A DNA stretch of 12,708 bases, taken from IMG/VR virus record IMGVR_UViG_2737471845_000015, positions 1 through 12,708 of that record; one strand, 5' to 3'. The stretch is from a virus (lineage: Duplodnaviria > Heunggongvirae > Uroviricota > Caudoviricetes). Numbering within the stretch: the first letter of the stretch is position 1; each line of letters begins with the position of its first letter. Under the pieces are notes generated by a model. That model saw only the letters and a list, made by a program, of their open reading frames with translations, searched no databases and was not told the origin of the DNA. Below are positions 8,813-9,731 of the stretch, in pieces. Position numbers and translations under genes: made by a program.

Positions 8813-8877
8813 GCACCATCAACCACCAGGAATTACATCCATCATCATTTCCGAGATGCCAACAGGCTCTTCACAGT

Positions 8878-9345
8878 TCAGAAACTGCACAACCAGCAAA
8901 TTAACCTTTCGGAGTAACGCAAATGTTCGCTGGCAGACAACCCAACAGATGCACTCGCTTTGTTTTTTGCGGGCCTGACAATCGCTTTCATGTATGCGCT
9001 GTTCGTTTCTTCCAGATGCAGAATGCGCTCAGTGAGGCGTTCAGTGGTCATAAAATCCCTTTGCGTAATCAGACGCAGATAGCTCTGTTTCTGCCAGCAC
9101 GCCAGTTCGGCGACGAATTCACACTTGCTGCAAAACCAGGAAAAACCAAAAAACACCAGTCCGCAAAGACTCATCAGGGCAGGGAACTCAATCAGAAGAA
9201 AAGACAACACCGCAGCAATCAAGGCTCCAGAGCGCAGCACAAAAGCGGCCTTGTTGTTGAGTATGAAAACCATCTCTTCCAGCCAGTAGCTGTACCACAG
9301 ATGGAAAAAAATCTTCTTGTCTGCTTGCTCCATAGCAACAGGCAT
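8878..9345 (-). CDS. Membrane protein (two predicted TM helices), oppositely oriented accessory gene inside the early region
   Basis: Track ORF 8878..9351 (TTG start). I prefer ATG 9345 with GGAGG SD at 9352-9356 (6-nt spacer). About 155 aa, MPVAMEQADKK...AAFVLRSGALIAAVLSFLLIEFPALMSLCGLVFFGFSWF..., with two hydrophobic segments then a charged C-terminal domain. Codon usage looks normal, with frequent CTG and GAA. The overlapping plus-strand 371-aa track ORF (8923..10038) is low-complexity by comparison. Confidence 0.6.
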   Translation of the reverse strand: MPVAMEQADKKIFFHLWYSYWLEEMVFILNNKAAFVLRSGALIAAVLSFLLIEFPALMSLCGLVFFGFSWFCSKCEFVAELACWQKQSYLRLITQRDFMTTERLTERILHLEETNSAYMKAIVRPAKNKASASVGLSASEHLRYSERLICWLCSF

Positions 9346-9731
9346 AAACAACCTCCATTGTTAATAAACGCCGCTATCCTTCGGCGCATTCCATTTTTGC
9401 GCCGCGATTATACATACTTCAGCACGCAACACAAAAACCGCTTGCCAGCGCTCGTTGAGTCGGGTTACATTTCCGCTGCACCTCATAAAACGGGTGCCGG
9501 GATTCTCAACCCGCTGACTACACACGCGCACAACCGCGCCAGCGGTTTTTTTGTGCGTACTGTATTGCCACGTCTTTTTCGCGTCAGAATTATGGCGGGG
9601 CGTACGGGGCCGACTTCGGTCGGGCCGGGATCGTGTGTAGCCGGTGTTGAGAACCCCGTACGTCTCGCCACCCCGAGATTCTCAACTCTGGATGGTGAGT
9701 TTTCAAAACTTACTATACACGAGGCCACGTC
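9346..9731. promoter_or_regulatory. Structured intergenic control region with divergent promoter candidates and repeated GATTCTCAAC motifs
   Basis: Minus-strand promoter candidate for the membrane gene: TATAAT (plus 9407-9412) with TTGTGT 16 nt upstream. Plus-strand candidates: TTGCCA (9442-9447)-17 nt-TTACAT (9465-9470), and TTGCCA (9565-9570)-17 nt-AATTAT. Motif GATTCTCAAC at 9501-9510 and 9676-9685, inverted copy GTTGAGAAC at 9645-9653. UUCG-type hairpin CCGACttcgGTCGG at 9610-9623. Long-range stem CGTACGGGG (9601-9609) / CCCCGTACG (9654-9662). Confidence 0.45.
9532..9552 (+). terminator. Intrinsic terminator-like hairpin plus T-run within the intergenic region
   Basis: AACCGC (9532-9537), loop GCCA, GCGGTT (9542-9547), then a T-run to 9552 (7 T). 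It is on the plus strand, about 65-85 nt downstream of the TTGCCA/TTACAT promoter candidate. Confidence 0.5.

Follow-up and report, generated by a model that had tools for sequence, protein, structure and literature searches.

A counter-oriented gene for a two-helix membrane protein in the early operon of a P88-like Escherichia coli prophage

The window analysed here comprises the 12,708 nucleotides of the IMG/VR virus record IMGVR_UViG_2737471845_000015 (Caudoviricetes), the right two-thirds of which are the left arm of a P88-like (Xuanwuvirus, P2-like) prophage of Escherichia coli. Within the plus-strand early operon of this prophage lies a minus-strand gene for a small membrane protein with two hydrophobic helices (in the following the two-transmembrane, or 2TM, gene), and this gene, its relatives and its possible function are discussed below. 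What is new is a counter-oriented prophage moron for a membrane protein, drawn from a family without a characterised member; moron loci of this kind are already known. The stretch from 8813 to 9412 shows 100% identity with loci of E. coli O103:H2 12009 and of several O145 strains; the identical locus of O103:H2 12009 is at positions 1958620-1959087 of NC_013353.

A minus-strand gene within the early operon

A first-pass annotation, made from the letters of the sequence, had described a gene of about 155 codons lying antisense within the early operon, and this description holds: the open reading frame (ORF) at 8878-9345 is read on the minus strand and the genes that flank it on the plus strand. 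Reading from a TTG at 9351 extends it to 157 amino acids (aa), as in the list of ORFs, and the ATG version has 155. RefSeq carries the identical minus-strand coding sequence (CDS), called by the Prokaryotic Genome Annotation Pipeline (PGAP), as WP_001143720.1, a hypothetical protein. The length of the ORF is not above chance, as the window contains many spurious ORFs of more than 100 aa, and the gene is judged real because of evolutionary evidence, namely its homologs and its ratio of non-synonymous to synonymous substitution (dN/dS), and not because of ORF length or hexamers.

For the coding test, four E. coli variants with 91-94.5% DNA identity were compared with the window by the Nei-Gojobori method. 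The ORF is intact in all four, and dN/dS amounts to 0.14-0.19 in the minus frame versus 1.6-1.9 in the overlapping plus-strand frame that starts at 8923. In three of the variants, 15-17 non-synonymous codon changes stand against 17-24 synonymous ones in the minus frame, with third codon positions favoured; the fourth, S1-CHI, has one synonymous and six non-synonymous changes, which are too few to inform. This comparative evidence identifies 8878-9345 as a genuine coding gene on which purifying selection acts.

The plus-strand frame at 8923-10038 (371 aa) had been singled out in the first-pass annotation as the one whose conservation in relatives would speak against the gene, and the minus ORF might indeed be no gene at all, merely the shadow of this longer frame. 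The plus ORF is open in all variants, and in both Yersinia phage vB_YenM_42.18 and Fels-2 the homologous region has been annotated with ORFs that follow the flanking operon in strand. However, its codon changes comprise only 2-5 synonymous versus 30-33 non-synonymous ones; it crosses two Rfam-confirmed RNA genes, isrK and C4, and, out of frame, the gene of the derepression protein; and its sole Pfam match, to Phage_ASH, is below threshold (22.6 bits, cut-off 26) and maps to nucleotides 9466-9742, that is, onto the isrK-C4 region. Conservation at the protein level, at 25-30% identity, was found for the minus frame only. The plus ORF was rejected as a spurious coding frame because of its dN/dS and its course across RNA genes, and that the 2TM gene should be its shadow is hardly credible.

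The same region has attracted further labels in public records. The Pfam match just mentioned, a GenBank feature of PV468777 that reads "similar to ash family protein" (locus L001, 3619-3879) and the "ash family protein" CDSs of some RefSeq genomes all lie on the isrK-C4 RNA genes, and an "Ash protein" here is probably translated RNA-gene sequence rather than a protein. In Fels-2 (NC_010463; locus L018, 3501-3956) STM2733.1 (135 aa), and in vB_YenM_42.18 (locus L006, 3992-4459) gp08 (221 aa), are called on the strand opposite to the 2TM gene. Both are probably mis-annotations, in which case the two reference records carry wrong-strand ORFs over the 2TM gene.

The TATAAT (read from 9412 to 9407) and the GGAGG Shine-Dalgarno sequence that had been pointed out upstream of the gene are both present and are kept in the five gene-bearing E. 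coli variants. The claim of an independent promoter is upheld in part. It is plausible in that the -10 element is conserved among the variants, and TATAAT as such is not above chance in the window (two observed versus 3.2 expected); the -35 element, however, is poor, and because it reads only TTGtgt the promoter was missed by a consensus scanner. This candidate -35 lies just outside the breakpoint of the cassette that carries the gene (see below), in sequence common to phages without the gene. As the breakpoint is immediately downstream of it, the promoter would be half cassette and half flank; it stands back-to-back with the isrK promoter.

Between this promoter and the ATG, the minus strand at 9368-9401 can form two overlapping leader hairpins, GGCGC...GCGCC and GCGCCG...CGGCGU. 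S1-CHI keeps both by paired substitutions (G-C to A-U, C-G to U-A and one G-U), and its G-U pair would be an A-C mismatch on the opposite strand. This pairing evidence comes from a single divergent sequence, S1-CHI, and the folding z-score of the window leader is not significant.

Table 1. Features of the window, followed by examples of the elements that accompany the 2TM gene in relatives (coordinates of the respective loci).
Feature	Position	Strand	Basis or remark
DUF6148-like protein	1115-1333	minus	
gpA terminase (ATPase and nuclease domains)	1324-3423	minus	
DUF1441 protein	3432-3971	minus	
Integrase	5094-6218 (as ORF)	minus	gene order
Helix-turn-helix repressor	6118-6531	minus	gene order
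MarR-like gene	8546-8812	plus	early operon
31-codon stub ORF	8809-8904	plus	first nine codons, MSTINHQEL, are the start of the replaced ead/Ea22-like gene
Cassette, 599 bp	8830-9428	strand-neutral	blastn breakpoints and junction sequences; absent from P88 and PV468777
CDS of the 155-aa two-helix membrane protein	8878-9345 (stop codon included)	minus	ATG start; PGAP; dN/dS; PHROG 6315; AlphaFold2; hydropathy
Shine-Dalgarno sequence GGAGG	9352-9356	minus	6 nt upstream of the ATG; kept in 5/5 gene-bearing E. coli variants
5' leader hairpin, GCGCCG-loop-CGGCGU, then UUAUU	9368-9387	minus	alignment read by eye
Candidate -10, TATAAT	9407-9412	minus	kept in 5/5 variants including S1-CHI, despite several spacer substitutions there
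Candidate -35, TTGTGT	9430-9435	minus	3/6 consensus matches; 16-nt spacer
Sigma-70-like promoter of isrK, TTGCCA-18-TACATT	9442-9471	plus	TTGCCA at 9442-9447
isrK RNA	9478-9552	plus	Rfam, 61.8 bits
isrK terminator	9532-9547	plus	
C4 antisense RNA	9588-9675	plus	Rfam, 76.8 bits
Derepression protein gene (Pfam PF25738)	9732-9962	plus	early operon, directly downstream of isrK/C4
Hypothetical gene	10035-10400	plus	early operon
GpA replication endonuclease	from ~10407	plus	early operon
Small ORF of relatives	L012, 5896-5994; L018 (Fels-2), ~3411-3491; L027 and L028, upstream of 5001		
Structured leader of relatives	L025, ~4806-4850; L012, ~5792-5840		

The other genes of the window are given in Table 1. 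The plus-strand early operon comprises a DNA-binding protein at the cox position, DUF4761 and DUF4754 proteins, several hypothetical genes and the MarR-like gene, after which isrK and C4 are located upstream of the derepression gene. IsrK is the counterpart of seqA of P4, and C4 that of the P4 CI RNA (PMC3632133); the two form a P4-type RNA immunity module within a P2-like prophage. To the left of the P2-like integrase, lambda-type packaging genes occupy the minus strand at 1115-3971, followed by an AT-rich gap (region 4000-5100, GC 0.40-0.43). The same prophage abuts btuC in O103:H2 12009 and in O145 RM9872. Since packaging genes stand in the window where those strains have btuC, the prophage adjoins another prophage in the genome of the window; no tRNA gene is present.

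The cassette and the family to which its gene belongs

The first-pass annotation had proposed that the gene is an insertion that related phages lack, and a comparison of synteny bears this out. Against P88 and PV468777, homology in blastn ends at 8829-8836 and restarts at 9429, and the junctions can be read as 8829/8830 and 9428/9429. The two phages instead have plus-strand early genes at this position, over 1378 bp or 298 bp; among these is an ead/Ea22-like gene of 99-104 aa, and P88 has two further genes as well. As judged from the junction sequences, the cassette has replaced this ead/Ea22-like early gene of a P88-like prophage. The conserved start of the replaced gene, of which the stub ORF preserves nine codons, appears to serve as a recombination boundary for the exchange of cargo. 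In strain JNEC-KY204 a different upstream gene meets the cassette exactly at the stop codon at 8878.

The cassette is rare. Of 5426 complete E. coli genomes, 1148, or about 21%, have its right flank (9429-10038, at 80% coverage or more), and 12 have the cassette itself. About 99% of the E. coli genomes with the neighbouring isrK/C4 module are thus without the gene, which is therefore dispensable. Presence in some and absence from other, otherwise syntenic phages, with sharp breakpoints, is one of the traits of a moron, and it was found here. One further occurrence lies outside a complete prophage: E. coli MDK9L1 (NZ_CP081333; locus L004, 3481-4482) has a remnant of about 1 kb in which the 2TM gene is intact and is accompanied by isrK and a piece of the region downstream. 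Fragments of the insertion sequences (IS) IS110/IS3 and IS1 bound this remnant, which has the anti-phage gene hhe on one side and a type I restriction system on the other.

The statement that no homolog is recognised proved to be wrong. The window protein aligns with PHROG 6315 from residue 9 to residue 154 of its 155 (E 1.8e-27); as this group is without functional annotation, membership names the family and not its function. Searching 1.8 billion cluster representatives exhaustively with HMMER yielded 11 relatives, and profile searches extended the family to about 45 protein clusters of 146-159 aa, all "hypothetical" (E down to 1e-71 for members); a profile search of genome contigs with a narrower alignment gave six loci. 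The homologs have common conserved motifs down to about 25% identity and come from Escherichia, Salmonella, Yersinia, Serratia, Enterobacter, Cedecea, Brenneria, Pectobacterium, Sodalis, Phytobacter, Edwardsiella, Kosakonia and Pantoea. By these sequence searches, PHROG 6315 is a small family without a characterised member that is carried by temperate phages of Enterobacterales.

The genomic contexts of the relatives are diverse in place and uniform in orientation. Serratia P2-like prophages have the gene within their early operon, Enterobacter 186-like prophages between cII and fil, and Fels-2 beside fil. It belongs to the early region in Yersinia phage vB_YenM_42.18 (Firavirus) and to the early-left region in the lambdoid Providencia phage PSTNGR2lys, and it adjoins the terminase in Mu-like prophages of Salmonella and Edwardsiella; phage EKP1 carries it between Q and the holin gene, and Enterobacter sp. 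PTB near tail-fibre genes. In all of these the gene runs against the lytic genes. In P2-like prophages of Brenneria and Pectobacterium it is located between cox and the C repressor, directly upstream of this immunity repressor and in the same direction as C and int. The family is thus spread over P2-, 186-, Mu- and lambda-like phages, and in about ten phage contexts the gene opposes the lytic genes. In every context examined, the genes beside it are ordinary phage genes. According to a published statement, moron loci characteristically lie antisense to lytic genes (PMC7067206). By this analogy, the contexts of the family are the signature of a moron that would be expressed in the lysogen, and because the family always opposes the lytic genes, the 2TM gene is a good candidate for a lysogen-expressed phage-exclusion factor.

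These contexts also bear on the possibility that the protein acts in the phage's own cycle, that is, in induction, replication or the timing of lysis, or otherwise in host physiology or lysogenic conversion. In E. coli the gene adjoins regulatory elements, namely the isrK/C4 immunity RNAs and the derepression gene, and members of the family show faint, sub-threshold matches to hairpin families of holins and ATP-synt_I. However, such a role fits poorly with a dispensable gene that is missing from nearly all E. coli genomes with the isrK/C4 module and that occupies unrelated positions in at least four phage types, and a function in lysis, moreover, with an orientation against the late and lysis genes. 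We consider a role of this kind unlikely.

In all 16 non-E. coli loci examined, a small hydrophilic ORF of 26-58 aa ends 5-14 nt before the 2TM gene. The core of this ORF is FHxLHKPxPP, followed by a charged tail, and a PPPP run takes its place in the two most distant members. The polyproline suggests translation that depends on elongation factor P (EF-P), or else a regulatory or antidote peptide. In 13 of 15 non-E. coli loci the small ORF is itself preceded by a structured leader, which matches no Rfam family. It contains a near-invariant GCCGGG...CCCGGC inverted repeat, the 3' arm of which is the loop of a second, covarying hairpin, and the hairpin is followed by UUUUGUGGUA in a pseudoknot- or attenuator-like arrangement. 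In the alignment of this leader 93.8% of the cells are paired, four pairs are changed on both sides, and the covariation score was reached in none of 500 shuffles. Upstream of the ATG in the window, there are 83 nt of cassette and no such small ORF.

A two-gene module of this kind, with a covarying leader and a small ORF, could be read as an addiction system, in which a two-helix membrane toxin is restrained by the proline-rich peptide and the leader in most relatives and the cassette serves to stabilise the prophage and not to ward off other phages. Yet in the E. coli clade, where the small ORF is missing, the 2TM gene is intact and under purifying selection, which is hard to reconcile with an obligatory antidote. 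Moreover, the conserved cytoplasmic domain of 80 residues is unlike known small membrane toxins, and no match to PADLOC models or to toxin-antitoxin families was found. An addiction module is accordingly improbable in our judgement.

The predicted protein and its proposed function

The first-pass annotation had seen two hydrophobic helices and a charged C-terminal domain, and both are confirmed at the level of the sequence. The Kyte-Doolittle profile contains one hydrophobic block (residues 33-73), which the residues EFPA split into segments 33-52 and 57-73, and the last 82 residues include 12 lysines and arginines and nine aspartates and glutamates. An AlphaFold2 model built on a 34-sequence alignment (pLDDT 85, pTM 0.74) is all helical, with two long helices (2-50 and 55-94) that form a hairpin and three short helices behind it (101-113, 120-134 and 144-152). 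The turn of the hairpin is 4-6 variable residues long, and in the family basic residues flank the hairpin on both sides (NRR before it; R/K-rich sequence after the second segment). Because of these basic flanks, the positive-inside rule would place both termini in the cytoplasm, and from the model we infer an inner-membrane hairpin of N-in/C-in topology.

The conserved positions are distributed unevenly over this predicted fold. Residues Y20, E23, A82, Q85, Y89, L92, E112, S116, A126, N128, A130 and E146 are invariant or nearly so, and all of them are located in the helices predicted to be cytoplasmic; strictly invariant in the family alignments are L22, A82, Y89, E112, S116, A126, E140 and E146. 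The window protein shares the motifs of the family, that is, the (W/Y)xSYWLE motif of the N-terminal helix, the two hydrophobic segments, A..Q..RY, EExDS and NPARN(R/K)A, with NNK in place of NRR and EETNS in place of EEFDS.

We tentatively favour, as possible and somewhat short of probable, a function as a lysogen-expressed, cytoplasm-facing membrane effector that excludes superinfecting phages in the manner of abortive infection, a proposal made by analogy. A sigma-70 promoter of its own (TTGTGT-16-TATAAT) would drive the gene independently of the repressed early operon and in the opposite direction, so that the protein would be made in the lysogen. In the inner membrane the protein would form a tight hairpin of helices that exposes only about four residues to the periplasm, and the N-terminal helix (WYSYWLE) together with the three C-terminal helices (EExDS and NPARNKA motifs) would form a conserved cytoplasmic bundle. 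This bundle may sense or bind a cytoplasmic component of the infecting phage or of the host; cytoplasmic sensing is the most likely mode, since all conserved parts are on the predicted cytoplasmic side. In response, the protein would depolarise or permeabilise the membrane and thereby exclude the superinfecting phage. Exclusion would thus be of the abortive-infection type, as with SieB, RexB and the two-transmembrane SLATT effectors, and not a block at the cell surface. The intact gene in the IS-riddled remnant of MDK9L1 counts toward this reading, as do the precedent of lambda sieB and the weak resemblance to SLATT proteins (both discussed below).

As regards the accessory function that had been suggested at the outset, expression in the lysogen is strengthened by the counter-lytic orientation in about ten contexts and by the common direction with the repressor in two genera, whereas superinfection exclusion or abortive infection is argued by analogy, with neither a PADLOC match nor a relation to SieB.

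Several observations weigh against an abortive-infection effector. The signals of the gene are imperfect: to the poor -35 element and the silence of the promoter scanner is added that the sequence behind the stop codon yielded no intrinsic terminator. None of the 5027 defence models of PADLOC-DB v2 was matched at E <= 1, there was no NCBIfam match and no Pfam match above threshold, and none of the structural matches reaches significance (best E in BFVD, 0.09); any protein with two transmembrane segments and additional helices might give the same list. A literature search yielded no transcript or phenotype record for any member of the family. The location next to defence genes in MDK9L1 is one case only. 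Finally, the E. coli P88-like clade is without the proline-rich ORF and without the structured leader, and because these are absent the E. coli version may work differently or be decaying.

The small inner-membrane protein, its lysogen-type orientation and its behaviour as a moron would equally suit strict superinfection exclusion, in which the hairpin blocks genome entry at the inner membrane without killing the cell, as do T4 Imm, HK97 gp15 and P22 SieA. Such a block is nevertheless difficult to derive from a protein that has almost nothing on the periplasmic side, with a connecting loop of about four variable residues and all invariant residues predicted to be cytoplasmic, and no similarity to any known Sie family was found; we regard it as quite unlikely.

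A wider and more doubtful extension of the abortive-infection effector concerns the family as a whole. It could be a mobile anti-phage module, composed of the pseudoknot-like leader, the FHxLHKPxPP peptide ORF and a SLATT-like two-helix effector with a sensing bundle, which hops among P2-, 186-, Mu- and lambda-like genomes against the lytic genes, and of which the E. coli P88-like version would be a stripped-down solo effector beside the isrK/C4 immunity promoter.

If the protein does exclude phages, it would represent a new membrane defence of common enterobacterial prophages, consisting of a single gene or of leader, peptide and effector, with Fels-2 of Salmonella LT2 and the prophages of O103 and O145 Shiga-toxin E. 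coli among its carriers. The site between the early genes and the isrK/C4 module would then be a third variable cargo slot of P2-like phages, besides the published hotspots.

Relation to known systems

A Pfam scan of 34 members and nine further relatives gave sub-threshold matches of the hairpin type only (HemY_N, holins, SLATT_4, SLATT_fungal and ATP-synt_I), of which ATP-synt_I appeared in 14 of the 34 members (best 2e-4). Sequence-profile searches of the PDB gave chance matches only (bL20, E 0.2), and structure searches of the PDB generic helical hairpins only. The first-pass annotation had named a virion homolog as an observation that would speak against an accessory gene, and none was found by Pfam, PHROG or structure searches. 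Literature searches on STM2734, the locus tag expected in LT2, found nothing, and those on early-operon morons of P2-like phages nothing specific; the section on the BTP5 transcriptome in PMC7067206 contains nothing on the 2TM family.

With regard to architecture, the closest analogue is probably the SLATT 2TM effector domain (SLATT_1-5 and SLATT_fungal), to which the predicted fold bears a weak resemblance. SLATT proteins are effectors of CBASS-like and of reverse-transcriptase defence systems, for example DRT10/UG17, and they have two central transmembrane helices with cytoplasmic helices added at the N-terminus (one) and at the C-terminus (several), a layout that is predicted for the 2TM protein as well. 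In the Foldseek search of BFVD, SLATT-annotated giant-virus proteins occupy ranks 1, 3, 9, 11, 14, 15, 19, 29 and 32, all with E >= 0.09 and TM-scores of 0.4-0.6. SLATT_4 was matched by one of the 34 members, colinearly over residues 47-142 (E 0.11; 12.7 bits versus a cut-off of 27), and SLATT_fungal by one member at E 0.15; the window protein itself has no SLATT profile match, and a homolog search at E <= 10 returned no SLATT or other annotated protein. The 2TM protein differs from the SLATT effectors in that no match in sequence or structure is significant, and in that no nucleotide-generating, reverse-transcriptase or other sensor gene lies beside the 2TM gene in the contexts examined, where it stands alone or is paired only with the short proline-rich ORF.

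With regard to position, the closest analogue is, by comparison of gene arrangement, sieB of lambda and P22 (PF14163). It too is a gene for a small membrane-associated protein antisense within the early lytic operon of a temperate phage, located in lambda at 34482-35036 on the plus strand among the leftward pL genes, and its own promoter and expression in the lysogen are presumed; the Providencia relative of the 2TM family is found in the equivalent early-left region. The two proteins differ in size and helix layout, and homology was rejected, as hhalign gave a probability of 0.5% and the window protein has no match to PF14163, which lambda SieB matches at 1e-29.

Among described loci, the prophage morons, such as HK97 gp15 and STMMW_20121 of ST64B, are autonomous transcription units, as the 2TM gene may be, between or against the lytic genes; they, too, vary among syntenic phages, and they often encode membrane proteins (PMC7067206). 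The 2TM family is distinct from them, with no characterised member, and its relatives outside E. coli carry a conserved leader and a partner peptide of their own.

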